DNA from: an uncultured Verrucomicrobiae bacterium
GTDB lineage: Bacteria > Verrucomicrobiota > Verrucomicrobiia > Chthoniobacterales > JAFAMB01
Direction of reading: 5' to 3'
Assembly: GCA_963762565.1 (NCBI GenBank)
Contig: CAVXLD010000001.1
Location: forward strand, 64,001-128,000
Length of the DNA: 64,000 nucleotides
Both the position numbers and the translations under genes were made by a program. Positions 7,167-57,935 of the stretch are shown piece by piece. The notes beneath the pieces were generated by a model. It was given only the letters and a program-made list of their open reading frames with translations, was not told the origin of the DNA and did not search any database. Within the stretch, counting starts at the first letter, position 1, and each line of letters starts with the position of its first letter.

Positions 7167-8297
7167 CTACCGCTTTGCTAGCCAATCGCGCATCGCATCA
7201 AGCCCAGCCGGCACGTAAGATCTTGCGTAACCAATTCGGAAACGATCCTCCGGTAGCGGTGTAAGGTCTGACTGAAAGATGCTCGCCGGCAAAAGCAATA
7301 CGTTTGCTTCCTCGACTAACCGGCGCGCGAATGTTTCTACGCCATCAGCGCCTTTATAGCGTGGATATCCGACAGTGCCGGCGTCCGGTGTATCCCATTC
7401 AAATAGATCCGGAAACTCCGTGAAAAACTCGCCTACGCATTTGAGGTTAGCGTTGATCAGCGTCCGGTTACGATCAAGAATCCGCTCCTTCGCTCCGAGG
7501 GCGATAACGGCTAGAGCTTCACCGGGACCTGAGTTACAGATGGAGAGATAGTGTTTAATCCTCTCCATCCGCTGTAACAGGTCGCGGTCCTGAGCGGCAA
7601 CCCAGCCAATGCGTAGTCCAGACAAACCGTAAACCTTAGAAACCACACTAACCGAGAGACCCCGCTCATAATGATCAACCGCTGCAGGCAATCGAAGCGC
7701 CGGCGAACGCTCAATCAGCCGATAGACTTCGTCGGACAATAGCCATATGCCATGCGCACGGCAGATCTTGATCAGCTCGTCAAACTCCGCTGGAGACGGC
7801 AACTTACCAGTCGGATTGTTGGGAAAGTTAATCGCAATCAGCTTGGTGTTGGGCTTAATGCGATGGCGAACTTCATTGAGGTCGAGTTTCCACCCGTCAT
7901 CTGCATGCAGGCTGACACCGGTGACCGCGGATAGCGATAGGGTAATCGTCTCAAGTGACTGATAAGTCGGTGTGACGACGATGGCGTGGTCATCGGGTCC
8001 CAGCAAGGCGTGCAAGGCGACGTAAATGGCTTCCCCGCCACCTGCGAAAGCAAGCACGTTCTCCGCGGACACGGCCGAGTGGGTGGAGGCGACGGCGTGG
8101 CGCAGCGCTTCGCCGCCGAAGGTAGGAGTGTAACCCAGCCATAACCGCTCGAATGCCTCGCGATCGTCTGGGGCAGCCAAGCTCAGTAACTCCGCCAATG
8201 ACATGCTCTCGGCGTCTGACGCGGTCATATGAAATCGAGCGGCAAATTCCCAGCGAGCGAGATAGGTCTCGAGACGAAAATCGGGCAGGAGTGACAT
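7167..8297 (-). CDS. PLP-dependent aminotransferase class I/II
   Basis: INFPNNPTG, LLSDEVY, SKVYGLSGLRIGW (PLP lysine). Confidence 0.92.
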   Translation of the reverse strand: MSLLPDFRLETYLARWEFAARFHMTASDAESMSLAELLSLAAPDDREAFERLWLGYTPTFGGEALRHAVASTHSAVSAENVLAFAGGGEAIYVALHALLGPDDHAIVVTPTYQSLETITLSLSAVTGVSLHADDGWKLDLNEVRHRIKPNTKLIAINFPNNPTGKLPSPAEFDELIKICRAHGIWLLSDEVYRLIERSPALRLPAAVDHYERGLSVSVVSKVYGLSGLRIGWVAAQDRDLLQRMERIKHYLSICNSGPGEALAVIALGAKERILDRNRTLINANLKCVGEFFTEFPDLFEWDTPDAGTVGYPRYKGADGVETFARRLVEEANVLLLPASIFQSDLTPLPEDRFRIGYARSYVPAGLDAMRDWLAKR

Positions 8298-8298
8298 A

Positions 8299-8620
8299 GG
8301 TGATTGGTGAATGGTGATTGGTGATTAGTGATTAGTGATTAGTGGCGGCATCAGTAATCAGTAAGCAGTAGATCAGTAATCAGTGAAAGAAAGGGGGCGA
8401 CGCGGGGTTTATCTTTCAGAGAAAAATCGCGGTTCACATCTCCAATCGTTGACAAATCTCGAAACGCGTTGGCAGCGCACGATATCACCAATCACCAATC
8501 ACCAATCACCAATCACCAATCACCAATCACCAATCACCAATCACCAATCACCAATCACCAATCACCAATCACCAATCACCAATCACCAATCACCAATCAC
8601 GAATCACAATCACTCCATCA
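8299..8620. repeat. Inverted heptamer arms (GGTGATT)n ... (AATCACC)n
   Basis: Left arm 8299-8345 abuts the aminotransferase ATG; right arm about 16 near-perfect units at 8484-8620. Confidence 0.95.
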
Positions 8621-14470: not shown

Positions 14471-14660
14471 AGGCGTTTGGCGTTTGGCGTTTGGCGTTTG
14501 GCGTTTGGCGTTTGGCGTGTGGCGTTTGGCGTGTGGCGTGTGGCGTGTGGGTGTGGCGTGTGGCGTGTGGCGTGTGGCGTGTGGCGTGTGGCTGTGGCTG
14601 TGGCGTGTGGCGTGTGGTGTGGCGTGTGGCGTGTGGCGTGTGGCGTGTGGGCGTGTGGGC
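14471..14660. repeat. (GGCGTTT)n grading into (GGCGTGT)n heptamer array
   Basis: About 27 units directly downstream of pdxY stop. Confidence 0.95.
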
Positions 14661-14956
14661 GATAGCGCCCGGAGGGGAGCCGCTTTGGCGCATGCCTAAA
14701 AACTCACGACCATTTGCTCTGTGATGACCGCAGCCGAGAAAGGTGCTCAACAGGCGGCTCCCGCGAACTGCCCAGCGCTGCGCAGTTCTGTCGGTCGCAT
14801 AGAAGACGAATCAATGAAGCCGTGGGTGAAACCTCGCGCTGGGTAACTCCCGGGAGCCGCTTGCTTTCGCGTTTTCAGGTCACGGTCGCGATATAACAAA
14901 GATCGGGAGGTCGCTAGGCGCGCGCCAAAGCGGCTCCCCTCCAGGCGTTATGGCCC
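14657..14956. repeat. REPIN-like element, family C (second copy)
   Basis: ggaggggagccgctttggcgc (14671-14691) / gcgccaaagcggctcccctcc (14922-14942), inner gcggctccc / gggagccgc pair. Confidence 0.82.
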
Positions 14957-18188: not shown

Positions 18189-18713
18189 GTGGAAACTCTG
18201 CTGCTTTCGCCTATTACGATTGCTTTGGCCGCCGTTTTCGTACTGGGTTGCATACTCGTTTTGATCTGGGTATTCCGGGGTTCGGGTCGTCCGGCGGTTT
18301 ATTTGTCCGTTGTGGACAGCCTGCTCACGCCGGCGGAAAAGCTCTTTTACGAGCAGCTAGACCTGGTTATCGACGGCCGGCTACAAATTCTCTGCAAGGT
18401 GCGGCTGGCAGACTTGATCGAAGTCGAAAGCCGGCAACCGGAGGAACGAAACCGCGTTTTTCGCCGGATCTCTTCCAAGCATATCGACTTCGTCTTAGCT
18501 GAACCCGGCAATCTGACGCCTGTGCTGGCCATTGAACTCGACGACAGCTCTCACGACCGAGCTGATCGAAGAGAGCGCGACGAATACCTACAGGAATTGT
18601 TCGAGACGGTCCGGTTCCCTTTATTGCGAATCAAAGCTTCTGCTAGCTACAACCGAAGAGCATTAGTGGATGCTCTCGAACAATCGTTGAGACGCCGGTT
18701 CCAGCCCTATTAG
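18189..18713 (+). CDS. DUF2726 domain protein
   Basis: N-terminal TM; LLTPAEKLFY, KVRLADL, KHIDFVL, AIELDDSSH. Confidence 0.9.
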   Translation: METLLLSPITIALAAVFVLGCILVLIWVFRGSGRPAVYLSVVDSLLTPAEKLFYEQLDLVIDGRLQILCKVRLADLIEVESRQPEERNRVFRRISSKHIDFVLAEPGNLTPVLAIELDDSSHDRADRRERDEYLQELFETVRFPLLRIKASASYNRRALVDALEQSLRRRFQPY

Positions 18714-20340: not shown

Positions 20341-20545
20341 GGCAAGGCGAGACGAGAGGCGAAACGGCGAAACGGCGTATGGGCGAAACGGCGTATGGCG
20401 TACCGGCTGTGGGCGCTTGGAGGCGCATAGCGCTGAAGTGAATTTAGCTTAGAGGCTAAATTCTTCGCGGCCCGAAGGCTTTCGGGGCCAGGGGTTCGCG
20501 CTGTCGATCGCCGTTTCGCCCAATCGCCCATTCGCCGTTTCGTTC
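20341..20545. repeat. Inverted octamer arms (GGCGAAAC/GGCGTATG) ... (CGCCGTTT/CGCCCATT)
   Basis: Left arm 20345-20400, right arm 20509-20541. Confidence 0.8.
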
Positions 20546-20581
20546 CGCGTGGCGCGATTATGGCTATTATTGCCGGATCGT

Positions 20582-27515: not shown

Positions 27516-27625
27516 GGAAATTTCACCACAAAGACACAAAGGTCACGAAGGTCAGAAATCTGTTTAGACGAAGGCTTTCATTATTTCGAAACTTCGTGTT
27601 CTTCGTGTCTTTGTGGTGGAATATT
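27516..27625. repeat. Gene-less GxxExxY-type palindromic element
   Basis: ggaaatttcaccacaaagacacaaaggtcacgaag / cttcgtgttcttcgtgtctttgtggtggaatatt. Confidence 0.82.
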
Positions 27626-30242: not shown

Positions 30243-30431
30243 TCTATCTTTCTTGGCGTCTTTGTGCCTTTGTGTGAGATTTCGATTCTGGCCTGTAGTT
30301 TCAAAATGAGAAACCAGCGTCTCAGTTTGAGACAAAGTGCCTCGCGCAGAGGACGCAAAAGCCGCGGAGATCAAAAGCTCGAGGATCTCCTGCTTCTTTA
30401 CCTCTGCGTCCGCGGCGACCTTTGCGCGAGG
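30243..30431. repeat. Nonamer-type arms and IR pair
   Basis: tctttcttggcgtctttgtgcctttgtgtgagattt; ctcgcgcagaggacgcaaaagccgcggag / ctctgcgtccgcggcgacctttgcgcgag. Confidence 0.7.
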
Positions 30432-30555: not shown

Positions 30556-30813
30556 ATGAAGACTACTGTGGAGATTCCGGATGACTTGTTCAAGCGGGCC
30601 AAGGTGCTGGCCGCTCAAGAAGGAGTATCGATGAAGCAGCTCATTACAGAATCTCTTCAGCAAAGAGTCGCTAGACATTCGGCAGAAACCACGCTCGAGC
30701 CGGCTTGGAAGCGAGCATTCGGAGCTATGCGCGCCTATCGCAAGGAAAATCGGCGGATTGAGAAAATCATCGAGCAGGAATTCGAACAAATTGAGCCAGA
30801 GGACCGCAGATGA
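30556..30813 (+). CDS. vapB: VapB-like RHH antitoxin
   Basis: MKTTVEIPDDLFKRAKVLAAQEGVSMKQLI RHH; ATGA overlap with PIN gene. Confidence 0.8.
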   Translation: MKTTVEIPDDLFKRAKVLAAQEGVSMKQLITESLQQRVARHSAETTLEPAWKRAFGAMRAYRKENRRIEKIIEQEFEQIEPEDRR

Positions 30814-31187
30814 TTTTAGACACGAACGCATTCTCTTCTTTGGCTGATGCAGATGAGACCCTTTTATCGGTATTGGAAGGGACCGAGGAATTGTGTCTTC
30901 CCGTGATCGTACTCGGGGAATATCGCTACGGAATCTTTAGCTCCCGGTATCGCACAAGGTACCAGCAATGGCTGGCACGTGATCTTCAGCTCTTCCGGCT
31001 CCTGGAGATTGTTGAGTCGACCACCGTTCATTACGCGACGATTCGTTCATCGCTAAAAACGCAAGGGACGCCGATTCCGGCGAACGATTGCTGGATTGCC
31101 TCCTTAGCCAAAGAACACCGTTTACCGATCGTCAGTCGAGACACACATTTCGACTTGGTGAAAGGTATTCGGCGCGTCGAGTGGTAG
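30810..31187 (+). CDS. vapC: VapC PIN-domain toxin
   Basis: MILDTNA, IVLGE, PIPANDCWIA, SRDTHF. Confidence 0.92.
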   Translation: MILDTNAFSSLADADETLLSVLEGTEELCLPVIVLGEYRYGIFSSRYRTRYQQWLARDLQLFRLLEIVESTTVHYATIRSSLKTQGTPIPANDCWIASLAKEHRLPIVSRDTHFDLVKGIRRVEW

Positions 31188-32100: not shown

Positions 32101-32346
32101 GGAATTTCACCACAGAGGCACAGAGAACACAAAGAACAGATAATAAAATCCGCAGATTACGCAGATTACACAGATTTCGTTTTGAGCTTCGGATAGCGGC
32201 CAAGTACTCAACGAAACGGCAGCATACCTGGACGACTTTTTTCCCTGCGGCTGGATTCAATCTTTAACGTAATCTGCGTAATCTGTGAAATCTGCGGATC
32301 CTAATGTCTGTCTCTGTGTCCTCTGTGTCTCTGTGGTGAAATTTCC
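32101..32346. repeat. Gene-less GxxExxY-type element with a nested CGCAGATT-type element
   Basis: Right arm ctctgtgtcctctgtgtctctgtggtgaaattt differs by 1 nt from 53274-53306; inner IR 32148-32176 / 32271-32299. Confidence 0.88.
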
Positions 32347-34799: not shown

Positions 34800-34920
34800 A
34801 GGAGCTAGGAGCTAGAAGATGGCGTTGCATTTCCTGCGGGGCGTCTTCTCTAAAAACAGGTTATCCGACATTGGTTGCGATCTCATTTTTCAGTTGTAGT
34901 CGTGATCTACTAGCTCCTAC
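34800..34920. repeat. (GGAGCTA)-arm palindromic element between permeases
   Basis: aggagctaggagctagaag ... ctactagctccta. Confidence 0.75.
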
Positions 34921-37363
34921 TCCCGTAGGGCCGTTATCGGGTCGATGCGGCTGGCTCGGAAGGCAGGGAGGAAACAAGCGATCAGCCCAGTAATGACAAG
35001 GACGACTGCGCTCGCTGCAATCGAAAGCGGATCCGTGGCCGAAACTCCATACAAGATGCCAGCGATTAGTCCGGATAGCGCCAAAGCGATCGCCAATCCG
35101 ATCAAAAGTCCGATGCCGACAATCCTTAAGCCCTGTCTAATGACTAACTGTAGTATGGCCGTGGATTGGGCGCCGAGAGCAATCCTGACCCCAATCTCGC
35201 GCTTCTTCTGACTAACCGAATAGGAAAGCACTCCGTATAAACCAATCGCGGCCAATAGCAAAGCGACGGCGGAAAACGCGCTGACTACAATTGACGCTAA
35301 CTGCCGGATGGCAAACGATCTGGCCACCACCTCTTCCAATCGTCCGATGTTCGAGACGGCCAGGTTCGGATCAAGATCCGCCACCACCTTGCGAAGCGGC
35401 TCGATCACCAAGCTCGGATTATTCTCGGTATGGAGCACTAATGTCGCAAAATTGATCCGATTCGGTTCAGTATTTTGGGCGTAGGGATAGTAACATTGGT
35501 ACGGTGTTGGTTGCGATTCAGGATTGTCATATTGAACAGTGCCAACGACGCCCACAATGGTGTAGAAGTTCCGCTTGAGTCCGACCCGATCATGAAAGTC
35601 GTAGAGCTGTTTTCCAAGCGGATCCTGATCGGGAAAGAATGCCTGGGCCACACTCTGGCTAATTATCACGACTTTCTCTTTTTCCGGGCCATCCTGGTTA
35701 GTAAAAGTTCTACCGCGAATCTGCGGAATGCCCATGCTCCGGAAGTAATCCGGCGAGATAAACTGGATTTGCCAAGCCGGAAGTTGGCTTTGGGGTGGCT
35801 CCCGGCGTCCCGAAATCCAGAAGCCGTCAAGGTTGCTGGCCGGCGAAGAGGGCATGAAGGGTAAGGCACTGTTCAGGCCGGCCGAGGTAACTCCGGGCAA
35901 CGTTTTTACCCGATCGAGCAATTTGTCAAAGAATTGGCGATACGCAGTCTGGTCCGAATAGTTGGCGTTGGTTAGATAGAGATCCGCAGCCAATCGGTTA
36001 ACCGCTTCGAATCCTAGCGGGGTGTGCTGCAATGCCTGGAAACTTCTGGCCATGAGACCGGCGCTGATTAACAGGATAACGGTAAGAGCGACCTGACCAG
36101 AGACGAGCACGGCTTGACCCAGATTACGAGCCCGGCCCGCCGTAACCCGCTCCCTTCTCGTTTGAGGGCTGACGCTAGATTGGTCCGAGAATTGACCAGA
36201 GCGGGGAACAATCCGGAAAATGCCGCAGTGACTAGAGTAATCAACAAGACAAAGATCAGAGCGCCGGTATCAAGCCGGACCTCCTGAAAACGTGCGAACT
36301 CATCCGGCGCGAGCGTTCTGATGACGTGAAGCGACCAAGCAGCAGCGGCCAGACCGACGGCGGCGCCGGCCAGAGTCAGGACCGAATTTTCGATAAGGAG
36401 TTGCGCGATCAGCCTTCTCCGATTTGCTCCCAGCGCAGCGCGCACACTCATTTCTCTTGCCCGTTCCTGCGCCCGAACGAGCAACAGTGTGGCTACATTC
36501 GCGCAGGTGATAACCAGCAGACACGCTACCGCCGCTTCCACCAGCCATAACGATCCGGAATAGCTGCCAATCACCGTATCGAGATAAGGAACCGCCCGGA
36601 TCCCGAATCCAATATCCTCAGGATATCGGCTTACGAGGTTCTGTTGGATGACCTCTAAATCGGCTTTGGCCGCTTCTAAGGTGGCGCCGTCTTTAAGGCG
36701 GCCAAAGCAAGCACAATCGTGGTTGAGCCGTTGGGTCATCTCGAGGGTCCCATAAAAACGGCTTTGATTTAGCGGGACATACACATCGATCCTAGCCGAC
36801 TCGCTGGCCACAGAAGGGGTCACGCCGATCACTTGAAGACTTCTCCCGTTTAACGACAAACTCGCGCCGACGACATTCGGATCGCCGTGGAACATCGTCC
36901 GCCAAAAATGTTCACTCACTATCACGACACCCGGCGCATCGGGCCGATCGTCGGCTACCTCTATCGGGCGACCAAACAGCATGGGACGTCCAAATAGCTG
37001 GAAAAATGTTCCCGAAACATAAGCGCCGCTGATTAACTCCGGGTTGCCACGTCCTGTCAGCGTAAAATCATCGTTGAGCGAGAGCGCCATTTCCTGGAAC
37101 GAATGTTGGCCGGCTTTGAGATCGACGTAATCAGGATAATCGAGCGGTAATCGCTCGAAGCTCCGAAAAGACTGGTATACCTGCACTAACTGTCCCGGAT
37201 GCGGGTACGGAAGCGGCTTCAACAGGACTGCTTCAATCACACTGTAGATAGCGGTATTCCCTCCAATCCCCAGTCCTAGAATCAAAATCGCAGTAATCAT
37301 GAATCCAGGCGATTTAACCAGTAGCCGGATTGTACGCCGGAGATGGGAAATTAGGCTTCGCAT
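34917..37363 (-). pseudogene. ADOP permease copy 4, split by a 1-bp frameshift near 36150
   Basis: ORF 36068-37363 (N-half) and 34917-36110 (C-half) join as KREG(E)RVTAGRARNLGQAVLVSGQVAL; the deletion lies in a G run. Confidence 0.85.
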
Positions 37364-39933: not shown

Positions 39934-39939
39934 AAGGGA

Positions 39940-40102
39940 GGAGTTAGGAGCTAGAATCTAGGAGCTAGGAGGGAGACTCTTTTTCTGATTCGTGCGTTGC
40001 TCCAACGACTGGTTTTGTCAGCTGACTTATGCAGATTCGATTCAGTTTTGTTCGCGATATCGTCATCTCTTCTAGATCCTAGATTCTAGCTCCTCGCTCC
40101 TA
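39940..40102. repeat. (GGAGCTA)-arm palindromic element between permeases
   Basis: gagttaggagctagaatctaggagctagg ... tctagatcctagattctagctcctcgctccta. Confidence 0.87.
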
Positions 40103-42551: not shown

Positions 42552-42748
42552 AGGAGCTAGGAGCTAGAATCTAGGAGCTAGAAGTTCGCTTCGGGGTTTT
42601 TGGATAGTGCAATCGAGGGACAGATTTCGTGCCGTCATTTAACATTCGTTGTGTAAGATTCGCGCTCATTTTGATGTCTCCTAGATCCTAGATTCTAGCT
42701 TCTAGCTTCTAGCTCTCTAGCTCCTAGCTCCTAGCTTCTAGCTCCTAC
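42552..42748. repeat. (GGAGCTA)-arm palindromic element
   Basis: aggagctaggagctagaatctaggagctag ... ctagatcctagattctagcttctagct...(ctcctag)n. Confidence 0.88.
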
Positions 42749-42864
42749 AGCGACCAACAGCCGATAGCCAACGGGTAGGAGCCAGGTCTGCGCGCACGAG
42801 TGGAACTTCGATTGGCTGGGATGAACGACGTTCCCGCTCCATACGCTTTCCGGTTAAGGTTCAT
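42745..42864 (-). CDS. Putative 39-aa small peptide (below ORF-track cutoff)
   Basis: AGGAG 7 nt before ATG; MNLNRKAYGAGTSFIPANRSSTRARRPGSYPLAIGCWSL; stop abuts the repeat arm like neighbouring genes. Confidence 0.4.
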   Translation of the reverse strand: MNLNRKAYGAGTSFIPANRSSTRARRPGSYPLAIGCWSL

Positions 42865-42942: not shown

Positions 42943-43062
42943 CTTTCACAACAAGGCCACAAAGGCGCCAAGACTGAACAGGTTCAAAAAAAGGCTTTTT
43001 TCGAAATCCACTATCTGTCTCAGTCGTTTTGTCTCTGCGGCCTTTGCGACCTTGCTGTGAAC
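42943..43062. repeat. Degenerate nonamer-arm palindromic element
   Basis: tttcacaacaaggccacaaaggcgccaag / ctctgcggcctttgcgaccttgctgtgaa. Confidence 0.7.
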
Positions 43063-50312: not shown

Positions 50313-50651
50313 ATTTCACGCCAAGACGCAAAGACGCAAAGGTGATTCGTGATTCGTGATTAGTGATTAGTGATTGGTGATTGGTGGAGGCACTTGGTGG
50401 GGCGAGGCTCCCGAAAGAGTAAGAAGTTCTATCAGAGCTCCCGATGTTTCGCCGCTAAAGAGTTTGTTAGGCCTATTGACGCGCCGAGCCGGGGCCCAGC
50501 GATAGACCACGGCTCGGCGCCCTTAACGGCCTAGCATCGCGGGTCGGCGGGGTTAACCGCAAGGGCTTCGCTATCGCGATGGACCTTTCGGGAGCCTCGC
50601 CCCACCAATCACTTCTCACCAATCACCGATCACGTCTCGCCCTACCAATCA
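50313..50651. repeat. Nested composite: nonamer arm, GTGATT heptamer arms and family B REPIN
   Basis: 24-bp perfect IR ttggtggggcgaggctcccgaaag (50394-50417 / 50585-50608) inside heptamer arms. Confidence 0.85.
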
Positions 50652-52430: not shown

Positions 52431-52793
52431 ATGGAAGTGATTAATCGTAACGAGGTCGCGGCATTCGTCGGACCGGATGGCGGCATTATCCGGGAGCTTG
52501 CTGCTAGCCGGAATTCATCGGCCCGAAAACAGAGTTTGGCCGAGGCTACGATTCCGGTCGGAGGAACGGTTACCGAACATTTTCACAAAACCACAGAAGA
52601 GTTTTACTACATCCTCAGCGGAACCGGCCTGATGAAGATCGAGGACGAACTGAGAGAAGTGGGTCCGGGAGACACGGTTATTATCATTCCCGGTAAACGC
52701 CACAAGATCACAAACAACGGCCAAGTTCCGTTAGTTCTGCTGGCGTGCTGTTCACCTGAATGGACTGCAGAAGATCAGGTGCTGGTGGACTGA
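52431..52793 (+). CDS. Cupin domain protein
   Basis: SLAEAT, EHFHKTTEEFYYILSGTG, IPGKRHKITN. Confidence 0.9.
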   Translation: MEVINRNEVAAFVGPDGGIIRELAASRNSSARKQSLAEATIPVGGTVTEHFHKTTEEFYYILSGTGLMKIEDELREVGPGDTVIIIPGKRHKITNNGQVPLVLLACCSPEWTAEDQVLVD

Positions 52794-52801
52794 TTAAAAC
52801 C

Positions 52802-53306
52802 AAATTTCACCACAGAGACACAGAGGACACGGAGAACTGATCACAGACTAATTATAACACTTTACATTTATGGTGTGTATGCGATGATCGGAATATGGAA
52901 GGGTTTAGAAATGACCTAACGCATGCCGCAATCGGCATGGCCATCGAAGTACACCGGGAGCTCGGCCCCGGGCTCCTCGAATCGGCTTACGAAGAATGCC
53001 TCGCCTACGAGTTGCACCAATCCTCCTTGAGATTTGTTCGACAAAATCCCTTGCCTATCAAATACAAAGGCTTGGAGCTAGAATGCGGCTACCGGGTAGA
53101 CCTCCTCATTGAAGATGAGCTAGTTATCGAGTTAAAGAGCGTCGAAGAGCTGCTCCCGATCTTCGATGCCCAAGTCTTAACCTACATGAAGTTGGCCGAC
53201 AAGCATTTAGGGCTGTTGATCAATTTTAACGTGCCAATGCTGAAAACGGGAATCAAAAGATTTGTCCGTTGAGCTCCGTGTCCTCTGTGTCTCTGTGGTG
53301 AAATTT
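52802..53306. mobile_element. Putative autonomous palindromic element: GxxExxY gene between 33-bp perfect inverted arms
   Basis: aaatttcaccacagagacacagaggacacggag (52802-52834) / exact reverse complement 53274-53306. Confidence 0.7.
52895..53272 (+). CDS. GxxExxY protein (PD-(D/E)XK nuclease superfamily)
   Basis: VHRELGPGLLESAYEECL, YRVDLLIE, VIELKSV, AQVLTY, GLLINFN. Confidence 0.93.
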   Translation: MEGFRNDLTHAAIGMAIEVHRELGPGLLESAYEECLAYELHQSSLRFVRQNPLPIKYKGLELECGYRVDLLIEDELVIELKSVEELLPIFDAQVLTYMKLADKHLGLLINFNVPMLKTGIKRFVR

Positions 53307-53310
53307 TGTT

Positions 53311-54672
<1,362 letters not shown>

Positions 54673-54881
54673 GAGAAACGGGGAGCAGATTTTATCCCAA
54701 ACTGTTTAAGCAATCGGTGAGTTATTAGAAAAGGATAAAAAAGAACGAACGCAGCAAATGATGGGCAACTGTGCATTATTCTAAGCGAGGCGCTCCGGAA
54801 ACTGGGTAACAAAGCCGCCTAGAAACGGTCTGGCTTAAGCAGAAAGCGATTTTCCCCTCGTCGTGCGCGCACCCCGGTTTT

Positions 54882-55560
54882 TACCCCAAAGGGGTAATAG
54901 GACTCAGCCTGGGGTTTTAACCCCAGGAATGCGCCAAAAAAAAGACCCCCGCCCTGAAAGGGCGGCAGATTTTTGGAATGACAAATACATCAATATATTA
55001 TGTAATAGATACAATGTCTTAATCACTGGCACGCATCTTGATTCACCTTGTCTTTTCGACCAAGAACCGGGTCGCGTTCTTGCAATCTCAACAGCTCCGA
55101 TCTGAAGTTCACGCGTATCTTACTGCGACTTTACGCGCCCTGGATTGCGAACCCGTTCAGGTCGGCGGAGTCAGCGATCACGTACATCTACTCTTTGGTC
55201 TTTCCCGAACCGTCTCGCTGGTAGATGTAGTTAAACAGCTTAAAACCAGCTCCACGAAGACGATTCGAGAGAAAGGTCATCACGCTTTCAGTTGGCAAAC
55301 CGGCTACGGCGCCTTCTCAGTCAGCGAATCGAATAAAAGCGCAGTCATCGACTACATCATCAATCAAGAAATCCACCATCGTAAGATGACATTCCAAGAA
55401 GAAATCAGGGTGCTTCTAACCAAGCACAGTATGCGTTTCGATGAGCGATACGTCTGGGATTGAGACACTCTCAATCTGCCGCCCTTTCAGGGCGGGGCAT
55501 TTTTGGGGCGCATTCCTGGGGTTAAAACCCCAGGCTGAGTCCTATTACCCCTTCGGGGTA
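54882..55560. mobile_element. IS200/RAYT-like element with ~90-bp multi-hairpin inverted arms
   Basis: Arms 54882-54971 and 55473-55560, each with taccccNNNggggta, cctgggg-N6-ccccagg and cgccct-N4-agggcg-type hairpins. Confidence 0.85.
55014..55463 (+). pseudogene. tnpA: HUH Y1 transposase (IS200/IS605 TnpA, RAYT-like) with TAA at codon 3
   Basis: MS*SLARILIHLVFSTKNR, DHVHLL (HUH), FSWQTGYGAFSVS, YIINQEIHH; in-frame TTG at 55038 could restart. Confidence 0.8.
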
Positions 55561-55632
55561 CAACCCCAACGTCCGAAAGATCGGCGCTTCGTTAGAACCT
55601 GACGTTCTTTCGGGAGGCGCACCCTAGCAACG

Positions 55633-56857: not shown

Positions 56858-57084
56858 GACCGGTAGGGCGAAAATCTCGGCGCGCCCAACGGAAACCATT
56901 TTTTTTGTGACTCAATCGCGCCGGATTTGAGCCATGCGTGGGCCCTGCATCGTCCGGGACGCAATCGTTCTGTGGCGTGTCGAACCGTCGGAAGTTGCGG
57001 CTCCACGGAGCGGCTCAAATCCGGCGCGGTTAGACGTTTTAAAAAACGCATCCTGGGCGCGCCGAGATTTTCGCCCTACCGGTC
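56858..57084. repeat. REPIN-like element, family A, preceded by a family B arm (56836-56858)
   Basis: 31-bp perfect IR gaccggtagggcgaaaatctcggcgcgccca; inner cgcgccggatttgagcc / ggctcaaatccggcgcg. Confidence 0.87.
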
Positions 57085-57704: not shown

Positions 57705-57935
57705 AAGTAAGCAGTAAGCAGTTTAGGAGCTAGAATCTAGGAGCAAGGAGGGCGGGGGCTTGGCAGCCGACGGTGCGGGTGGCATGCGAGTAATCAGTGA
57801 TCGGTAAGTCAGTAGTCAGTGCTGAAGGCGGATCGATCACTGCTTACTGCTTACTTTGAGACTCCTGGCTATCTTTCGTCCAACGTCCGCCAGACCCCCG
57901 ACCCGTTAGCTCCTAGATTCTAGCTCCTAGCTCCT
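57705..57935. repeat. Composite CAGTAAG and GGAGCTA arms
   Basis: agtaagcagtaagcag, aggagctagaatctaggagc ... ctgcttactgcttact, tagctcctagattctagctcctagctcct. Confidence 0.85.

Follow-up and report, generated by a model that had tools for sequence, protein, structure and literature searches.

The DNA analysed here (the window) is a stretch of 64,000 nt from an uncultured Verrucomicrobiae bacterium (assembly GCA_963762565.1, contig CAVXLD010000001.1, positions 64,001 to 128,000), in which a gene for a 125-amino acid (aa) GxxExxY protein is enclosed by inverted arms at 52793-53315. The pairing of such a gene with inverted arms made of short tandem units is almost certainly a conserved cassette that recurs across phyla, and this cassette has very likely moved as a unit between loci and lineages. 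Arms and open reading frame (ORF) are inherited and exchanged as one unit, which can be present or absent at a given junction. The cassette is probably an undescribed kind of selfish, mobile DNA element. The chances are about even that 52793-53315 is one copy of a compact, widespread nuclease-gene cassette that has gene-less hairpins as partners and a nuclease acting on the arms.

The GxxExxY cassette of the window

The cassette consists of the following parts.

52793..52834, plus strand: left arm, with a perfect core at 52802-52834 and three CRCRRAG units at 52811-52834 behind a AAATTTCAC-C end
52835..52894, plus strand: leader of 60 nt, from the left arm to the ATG of the GxxExxY gene
52895..53272, plus strand: GxxExxY / PDDEXK_3 ORF of 125 aa, a predicted minimal PD-(D/E)XK nuclease with E29, D69, E79 and K81
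53274..53315, minus strand: right arm, the reverse complement of the left arm, with a perfect core at 53274-53306

The 33-nt arm at 52802-52834 was found as a perfect reverse complement at 53274-53306, a match given by none of 100 dinucleotide shuffles, and the inverted repeat extends to 42 nt with 95% identity (52793-52834 / 53274-53315). The neighbouring genes, encoding a cupin (52431-52793) and an NCS2-type (xanthine/uracil-type) permease (53311-54672), are convergent, and both of their stop codons are overlapped by the extended repeat. The outer 9 nt of the left arm (52793-52801) form a weaker extension that overlaps the cupin stop codon; the right arm begins 1 nt past the GxxExxY stop codon, and its extension overlaps the stop codon of the permease. 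A preliminary description of this DNA had placed a 125-aa GxxExxY ORF inside a perfect 33-bp inverted repeat between two convergent stop codons, which was borne out by the coordinates and the shuffles. It had also reported no evident target duplication, and no direct target duplication was seen at the window cassette on re-inspection. AAATTT stands at both outer ends and, being itself a palindrome, is indistinguishable from an extension of the inverted repeat.

The leader holds one weak sigma-70-like site (TTTACA, a 16-nt spacer and GATGAT, with TG before the second hexamer; 52861-52888). Relatives of the window cassette mostly lack a leader, and their arm abuts the start codon.

Inverted arms flank GxxExxY genes in 20 phyla

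Relatives were collected by searching genome contigs with a profile made from a 21-sequence alignment, and the best 80 of at least 601 stretches were taken. The proteins of these 80 loci are 56-67% identical to the window protein, and the record titles name 20 phyla, including one archaeon (Methanothrix); the source genome of the window is not represented in this set. The 85 tblastn rows yielded 82 genes after rows with less than 50% identity or shorter than 100 aa were dropped (two divergent second copies with 31-34% identity and one 42-aa fragment). Two or more units C[AG][CT]N[AG]AG, separated by 1-3 nt, were counted as an arm, which was called F on the gene's strand and R as the reverse complement. 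An F arm upstream together with an R arm downstream, both within 150 nt, was found at 51 of the 82 GxxExxY genes versus 1 of 568 control ORFs, taken from the same DNA and 100 aa or more in length. At least one arm lay within 150 nt of 80 of the 82 genes. The other genes had two arms in the arrangement R-gene-F (8 genes), F-F (6) or R-R (3), a single arm downstream (R in 5, F in 4), a single arm upstream (F in 2, R in 1) or no arm (2). Of the two loci without an arm, one (L067) shows an inverted repeat of 25 nt made from a variant unit. The flanking inverted repeats that the preliminary description had suggested looking for at GxxExxY loci elsewhere are thus present well beyond the window.

The same enrichment was obtained by a motif-free check, in which one flank was compared with the reverse complement of the other flank by Smith-Waterman alignment. 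Scores of at least 30 were reached by 50 of 81 GxxExxY genes versus 14 of 665 control ORFs, and scores of at least 40 by 34 of 81 versus 7 of 665. Annotated relatives of 163 aa start with MNHRGTEAQRR-like and end with LLCASVPLWFK-like peptides; these terminal peptides read as translated arm-like units and were the first hint of arms in other organisms.

Arms consist of conserved tandem units

From first to last unit, the cassette measures a median of 445 nt (range 400-582). The distance from the upstream arm to the homology-inferred codon 1 has a median of 1 nt, with the ATG directly after the last unit in many elements, and that from the stop codon to the downstream arm has a median of 10 nt. 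Three units were counted in 72 of 102 arms, and the unit period was 8 or 9 nt in 159 of 178 cases. The unit consensus is CRCRRAG, with the variants CACAGAG, CACGAAG, CACGGAG, CGCAGAG, CGCAAAG, CGCCGAG and CATGAAG, and the outer end of the arm reads (T)TCAC-C or (G/T)AAC-C.

Bases were counted in 54 right arms that were located solely by ungapped match to the left arm. Their first unit has C (54/54), C at position 3 (53/54), A (54/54) and G (54/54), and the base or bases before it include A in 47 and C in 45 of the 54; thymine accounts for 78 of 1404 arm bases. The near-invariance of the unit bases across phyla indicates that a sequence pattern is conserved and not merely complementarity. The main unit was equal in both arms of an element in 38 of 51 pairs, compared with a mean of 10.8 and a maximum of 19 for shuffled partners (2000 shuffles). 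Transition mismatches between arms, read on the sense strand, were G.U in 41 and A.C in 41 cases (counted in the 36 of 51 pairs whose identity was 22/30 or higher), and this lack of a bias of G.U over A.C gives no sign of selection for an RNA stem. Rfam held no family for the arms, either in the window at gathering scores or in six loci at E up to 1.

Some loci carry further arms or copies. At L034 (4900-7365) a tandem array of a repeat of about 225 nt places alternating reverse and forward arms around the GxxExxY gene. Within single locus stretches, L063 (5967-7046) has two identical cassettes in tandem, and in L029 (5963-6604) a complete cassette precedes a 3' fragment of the gene that has a reverse arm of its own. 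At L002 (5548-5931) a 127-aa DUF2513 ORF with a reverse arm on either side immediately precedes the GxxExxY gene, and may be another small gene living among these hairpins.

Arms and gene are exchanged together and retained in core operons

Non-syntenic pairs of loci were compared by all-versus-all blastn, and similarity was confined to the ORF plus about 20-45 nt upstream and about 30-52 nt downstream of it. Two loci in unrelated contexts (L026 and L029) were 88.6% identical over 464 nt, and a Planctomycetota locus and a Lentisphaerota locus (L018 and L066) were 74.5% identical over 436 nt. Homology between unrelated contexts comprises the arms plus the ORF and ends at the arm ends.

Arm types were placed on a protein tree from a quick IQ-TREE search (LG+G4), which is weakly resolved, with 7 of 78 inner branches starred. 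On it, arm type required 26 changes versus a shuffled mean of 44.8, and none of 200 shuffles was as low. Phylum labels are mixed on the same tree, where the 20 groups need 35 changes. A clade formed by 16 CACGAAG-type rows contains seven Planctomycetota and members of at least six other phyla, and the Acidobacteriota alone use six unit types. The co-variation of arm sequence with protein phylogeny that the preliminary description had proposed as a check was therefore seen, and because shared ancestry of neighbouring rows can itself yield clustering of arm types, it is read as co-inheritance of arms and gene, not as co-adaptation.

The cassettes occupy short spacers, often inside housekeeping operons. 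They were found between carA and carB in three alphaproteobacterial bins (L004, L017 and L051), between trpD and trpC in L039, between rlmB and rarA in L043, upstream of lysS in L049, and between radA and the gene for a FAD protein in a Bacteroides finegoldii record. In Sphingomonas parapaucimobilis the cassette fills a fabD-fabG spacer of 464 nt; in S. paeninsulae that spacer is 32 nt, with nothing arm-like in between, and in six more Proteobacteria among the matches listed the fabD-fabG span is about 1670-1702 nt versus 2159 nt in the filled locus. An empty site without arms argues that the arms travel with the gene and are not a pre-existing target.

Cassettes are also retained over long times. 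The carA-carB cassette is common to bins whose titles name different families and whose flanks share about 73-83% identity, and other syntenic groups are L047/L054, L011/L061/L056, L060/L073 and L043/L076. The ratio of nonsynonymous to synonymous substitution rates (dN/dS) of the GxxExxY protein was 0.044-0.205 in 7 of 12 pairs, and dS was saturated in the other 5. Between L004 and L017 dS is 2.4, yet three CACAGAG units are kept on each side. Low dN/dS and arms kept despite a dS of 2.4 indicate that protein and arms are both under purifying selection. Co-orientation of the gene with its neighbours (54/71 upstream, and 51/71) was not used as evidence; ordinary bacterial genes show similar levels.

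The GxxExxY protein is a predicted PD-(D/E)XK nuclease

The window protein matched PF13366 PDDEXK_3 (E 9.3e-42, 142.5 bits versus a cut-off of 22) and TIGR04256 GxxExxY (E 4.7e-44, 149.5 bits versus a cut-off of 35). The name-giving motif is G26-L-L-E29-S-A-Y32, followed by D69 and E79-L-K81. In an alignment of 78 diverse sequences E29, Y32, D69 and E79 were invariant and K81 was at least 90% conserved, so the E...D...ExK catalytic signature is retained. An AlphaFold model built from this 78-sequence alignment gave a PD-(D/E)XK-like alpha/beta fold with a predicted local distance difference test (pLDDT) score of 96.6; an earlier model from a shallow 21-sequence alignment (pLDDT 52.7) was set aside. 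The best structure matches in PDB were all PD-(D/E)XK nucleases, namely lambda-type exonucleases, Cas4, the nuclease domains of AdnAB/AddAB and archaeal Hjc resolvases. These matches were weak (E 2.9e-3 and worse, template modelling (TM) score 0.4-0.5), indicating that there is no close solved relative, and a PDB sequence search with the window protein returned nothing at E up to 0.01. The PADLOC defence models gave no match.

Two-domain GxxExxY proteins of 240-295 aa (P0121-P0131) were also found, in which, as judged by eye, the first domain keeps D...ExK and the second has apparently lost it. Such forms resemble a pseudo-dimer, which hints at a dimeric enzyme. The family is large, with 20,763 clusters at 50% identity matching at E up to 0.001. 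The preliminary description had called GxxExxY proteins PD-(D/E)XK-fold proteins without a known role; the profiles and the model agree on the fold, and the family table in the available part of PMC3424549 enters PDDEXK_3 as function unknown with 'multiple transfers'.

Gene-less hairpins and solo arms accompany the cassette

Arms of the same type occur elsewhere in the window.

32103..32344, no strand assigned: gene-less hairpin with the arms of the window cassette (left 32103-32134, right 32312-32344)
27520..27622, no strand assigned: gene-less hairpin with arms 27520-27559 / 27583-27622 of 40 nt, 83% identical, with CACAAAG / CACGAAG units and a 23-nt loop
24985..25019, plus strand: solo forward arm, AAAATTTCACC plus CACAAAG/CACAGAG units, without partner
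30252..30274, minus strand: solo reverse arm of three diverged units
42958..43048, no strand assigned: diverged gene-less pair, CACAAAG/CGCCAAG forward at 42958-42972 and reverse at 43033-43048
50319..50341, plus strand: solo forward arm of three units, CGCCAAG/CGCAAAG, abutting a GTGATTR-type hairpin arm

The right arm at 32312-32344 is identical to the gene-bearing arm at 32 of 33 positions (1 mismatch). Directly inside this hairpin is nested an unrelated inverted repeat (32136-32181 / 32266-32311) of GCAGATTAC-type units, and the whole of 32103-32344 folds as single-stranded DNA with a z of -9.96. The hairpin at 27520-27622 sits between two duplicated-permease genes. The gene-less arms that the preliminary description had placed at 32101-32346, 27516-27625 and 24985 (solo), and the diverged relatives that it had placed at 30243, 42943 and 50313, were recovered at the positions listed above.

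The loci and the window together contain 415 arms, whereas ten Markov-2 simulations gave 16-30. In the 777 kb that lie over 400 nt away from any GxxExxY gene, 159 arms were counted; among them are 35 gene-less F-R pairs, whose loops have a median length of 60 nt (range 3-177). The main unit was the same as that of the locus's own gene arms in 19 of these 35 pairs. One betaproteobacterial locus (L061) has hairpins of four unit types, each with matched arms, and nested hairpins were seen in L074, in a Gemmatirosa replicon and in the window. Among 72,556 plasmid records, 18 contain arm-like DNA, all from Bacteroides, Gemmatirosa or filamentous cyanobacteria. The phyla of these plasmid hosts also carry cassettes in the 80 loci, and the gene itself is present in 2 of the 18 records. 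This overlap of arms and gene is suggestive, as a count made outside a controlled co-occurrence test.

Comparison with known systems

The cassette is anatomically closest to RAYT/REPIN and to ORF-bearing 23S ribosomal RNA (rRNA) intervening sequences. With RAYT/REPIN, for which the comparison draws on the available parts of PMC3116915, PMC3337134, PMC5581495 and 10.1101/2021.07.10.451892, it shares a small enzyme gene between inverted short repeats, gene-less doublets and solo repeats in the same genome, and long vertical retention in some lineages. It differs in that the RAYT enzyme is an HUH/Y1 transposase (PF01797) and the cassette enzyme a PD-(D/E)XK nuclease, in that the repetitive extragenic palindrome (REP) is a single GTAG-type palindrome whereas the cassette arms are tandem 8-9-nt units, and in that homology between phyla is also confined to the cassette.

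The 23S rRNA intervening sequences with an S23p ORF (Coxiella, Leptospira) likewise measure about 430-500 nt, end in inverted repeats of about 28-33 bp and have one small ORF that fills the loop. S23p is a four-helix bundle. Its ORF belongs to another family than GxxExxY, and the intervening sequences lie in helix 45 or 25 of 23S rRNA, whereas the cassette lies between protein-coding genes and encodes a nuclease; Rfam found no rRNA in the window. ORF-bearing intervening sequences are cut out by RNase III. According to the available part of PMC4990558, they are suspected to be selfish, by a mechanism described there as unknown.

Insertion sequences (IS) and miniature inverted-repeat transposable elements resemble the cassette in their terminal inverted repeats, single gene and short gene-less derivatives with the same ends. 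The cassette differs from them in having no transposase of a known class (DDE, HUH, serine or tyrosine), with PDDEXK_3 as its sole domain, and in showing no target-site duplication in 51 elements. To our knowledge, about 445 nt is smaller than any known IS.

Homing endonuclease genes are comparable as small site-specific nuclease genes whose spread could depend on cutting and host repair, with filled and empty alleles (for the cassette one between-species case, fabD-fabG) and a patchy cross-phylum distribution; the I-Ssp6803I family of homing endonucleases even has the PD-(D/E)XK fold. The cassette, by contrast, is intergenic, outside any intron or intein; it has conserved inverted arms of its own, and the empty fabD-fabG site shows no arm-like target. 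TnsA of Tn7 and the Rpn/YhgA-like PDDEXK_2 proteins, which are linked to DNA movement, belong to the same PD-(D/E)XK nuclease superfamily as GxxExxY and were compared at the superfamily level only. TnsA needs a DDE transposase as its partner. The Rpn proteins have a length of about 300 aa, and we know of no such arms for them. PDDEXK_2 is tabulated as 'putative transposase' in the available part of PMC3424549. Since the cassette lacks a defining feature of each family considered, it is placed outside the described kinds of element, with a mechanism that we infer.

Proposed mechanism and alternative explanations

As we picture it, the nuclease, probably a dimer, would recognise the repeated units at both ends of the cassette and cut at or near them, and host recombination or repair would then complete movement or copying. 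Gene-less hairpins would be non-autonomous partners served in trans, as REPINs are by RAYTs. Recognition of the units by the nuclease would be the most economical reason for a unit that is fixed across twenty phyla alongside one protein. PD-(D/E)XK enzymes only hydrolyse DNA, without a covalent intermediate, and joining is for this reason assigned to host repair or recombination, which would fit the absence of target duplications. That the element's own nuclease acts on the arms and drives the spread is a tentative proposal, to which we give slightly less than an even chance. The stronger proposal of a new autonomous element class, in which a 125-aa nuclease reads tandem 8-9-nt units and moves or copies the cassette of about 445 nt, and hairpins in trans, without target duplication, is possible but doubtful. 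The pair analogous to RAYT/REPIN that the preliminary description had envisaged is partly supported, by the conserved unit, the co-variation of arm type with the protein tree, the gene-less hairpins, the present/absent site and the long vertical retention; its remaining part, the nuclease as driver, is one that we infer.

Several observations weigh against a mobile element driven by its nuclease. In the R-gene-F arrangement, the opposite of the usual one, 8 of the 82 genes lie between two complete hairpins. Among more distant family members, one in Treponema (L083 1430-1890, 41% identity) has only an 11-nt inverted repeat and one in Prevotella (L084 1340-1960, 42%) a direct repeat of about 60 nt and not inverted arms, and the second GxxExxY copies (31-34% identity) in L024 and L035 have no arms nearby. 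No target-site duplication was detected, as flanking 4-mers at offsets 0-8 matched in 0-4 of 51 elements. The sole comparison of a filled with an empty site is between two Sphingomonas species at about 72% identity, not between strains, and deletion of the cassette in the other lineages at fabD-fabG, although unlikely, is excluded by parsimony alone. Retention at the same locus with saturated dS is as compatible with domestication as with selfishness. Plasmids seldom carry the gene (7 of 72,556 records), and it was found in none of 50,697 entries of a phage collection, so that no vehicle for cross-phylum transfer was identified.

The retention data bear on the alternative that the cassette is a domesticated, vertically inherited host module, like RAYT, whose nuclease processes, resolves or maintains CRCRRAG hairpins and which no longer moves. 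The same junction is kept across alphaproteobacterial families at carA-carB and in the four further syntenic groups named above, purifying selection on the protein is strong, arms are kept while dS is saturated, and archaeal Hjc junction resolvases, which have a similar size, are among the weak structural matches (TM 0.43-0.47). RAYTs, too, are described as single-copy and vertically persistent in the available parts of PMC5581495 and 10.1101/2021.07.10.451892. A module that had only been inherited would not, however, be expected to share homology confined to the cassette in non-syntenic genomes of different phyla or to have phylum labels mixed on its protein tree, and the presence or absence at fabD-fabG shows that the unit moved, at least in the past. 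We consider this alternative unlikely, and the domesticated and mobile readings are not mutually exclusive.

The arms could instead be an RNA or expression device that pairs in the transcript and controls the nuclease mRNA and the host operon, in which case they would not be the DNA substrate of the nuclease and something else would move the cassette. The architecture of the cassette is nearly identical to that of the Coxiella intervening sequence, which in the available part of PMC4990558 has 428-444 nt, a terminal stem of 28 bp and a single ORF within its loop. The window element folds as RNA with its full terminal stem (z -9.65), the inner units, rich in purines, occupy the expected position of a ribosome-binding site just before the ATG, and the gene is co-oriented with its upstream neighbour in 54 of 71 cases. 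That co-orientation is, however, about the level of any bacterial gene, the arm mismatches are evenly divided between G.U and A.C, the unit sequence is conserved across phyla and does not drift with compensatory changes, and gene-less hairpins and solo arms have nothing to regulate; we regard an RNA device as improbable. More improbable by far is an origin of the arms as ordinary REP-type or terminator hairpins that the IS200/RAYT-like enzyme encoded at 55038-55463 spreads, with the GxxExxY gene merely caught in one of them. This Y1_Tnp ORF does lie only 1.7 kb away, and gene-less hairpins stand right after stop codons, as REPs or terminators do, but it has unrelated 73-nt arms of its own, whose GGGGTTTTAACCCCAGG core is found only beside that gene within the window, its homologue occurs in 0 of 80 related loci, and CRCRRAG arms flank GxxExxY genes in 20 phyla.

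If the mobile-element proposal holds in full, it would define a transposase or homing enzyme class beyond those known, active in about twenty phyla, where it would be the source of a large part of the intergenic hairpin repeats; a nuclease that truly reads short tandem units and moves DNA would be a new and very small DNA-mobility enzyme class. The CRCRRAG arms, as a defined DNA partner, offer a first testable function for the very large PDDEXK_3/GxxExxY family. The cassette also accounts for a class of intergenic hairpin repeats in many phyla and for annotation artefacts, the 163-aa 'proteins' with arm-like terminal peptides, and it places small foreign cassettes inside the core operons carAB, trpDC and fabDG, whose expression they may affect. 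Neither the arms nor GxxExxY mobility were found described in a literature search that left subscription journals and database family notes outside, and six arm 15-16-mers had no occurrence in article text.

Other elements of the window

The preliminary description had seen no transposase; a transposase-type gene is present in the window.

55038-55463: IS200/RAYT-like Y1 transposase ORF (PF01797 Y1_Tnp, E 1.6e-21, with weaker matches to IS200 and REP-tyrosine-transposase models)

It is flanked by its own 73-nt, 90% inverted repeat (54876-55566), different from the CRCRRAG arms. A link of the cassette to this neighbouring gene was considered and rejected, given the different arms and the lack of a homologue in the 80 loci. 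The only Rfam hit of the window, the Acido-Lenti-1 'sRNA' (small RNA; RF01687, 55515-55560, 38.3 bits versus a cut-off of 37), is part of the right arm of the Y1 element, so this motif may be a REP-like transposase end rather than a small RNA.

Other families of intergenic hairpins are built of tandem 7-8-nt units of the types GTGATTR/CACCAAT, TAGGAGC/TAGAATC, CGAAACGG and CAGTAAG.

8289-8611, 50341-50641, 39939-40101, 42553-42750, 57724-57929, 20347-20555 and 57705-57870: other unit-hairpin sites

They are often nested in or abut each other and the CRCRRAG arms, and have no associated gene in the window. The suggestion in the preliminary description that the GxxExxY system explains these other repeat-arm families as well was not supported, because the GTGATTR, TAGGAGC, CGAAACGG and CAGTAAG families lack the CRCRRAG unit and none was found around the GxxExxY genes examined.

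Hairpin elements are packed into nearly every spacer of a run of about eight duplicated MacB_PCD+FtsX permease genes (about 800-810 aa) with ABC ATPases at 25071-46743; one permease of this run is apparently split into ORFs 34917-36110 and 36068-37363. By their type, these permeases would suggest an acidobacterial genome. Two inverted repeats are unrelated in sequence to the unit-type arms: a perfect 31-nt repeat with a 165-nt loop (56858-57084) and a 42-nt, 88% repeat with a 216-nt loop (14657-14956). Unrelated to the cassette are also two small nuclease-type genes, a DUF2726 ORF with a weak restriction-endonuclease-like match (18189-18713) and a PIN-domain ORF (30810-31187).

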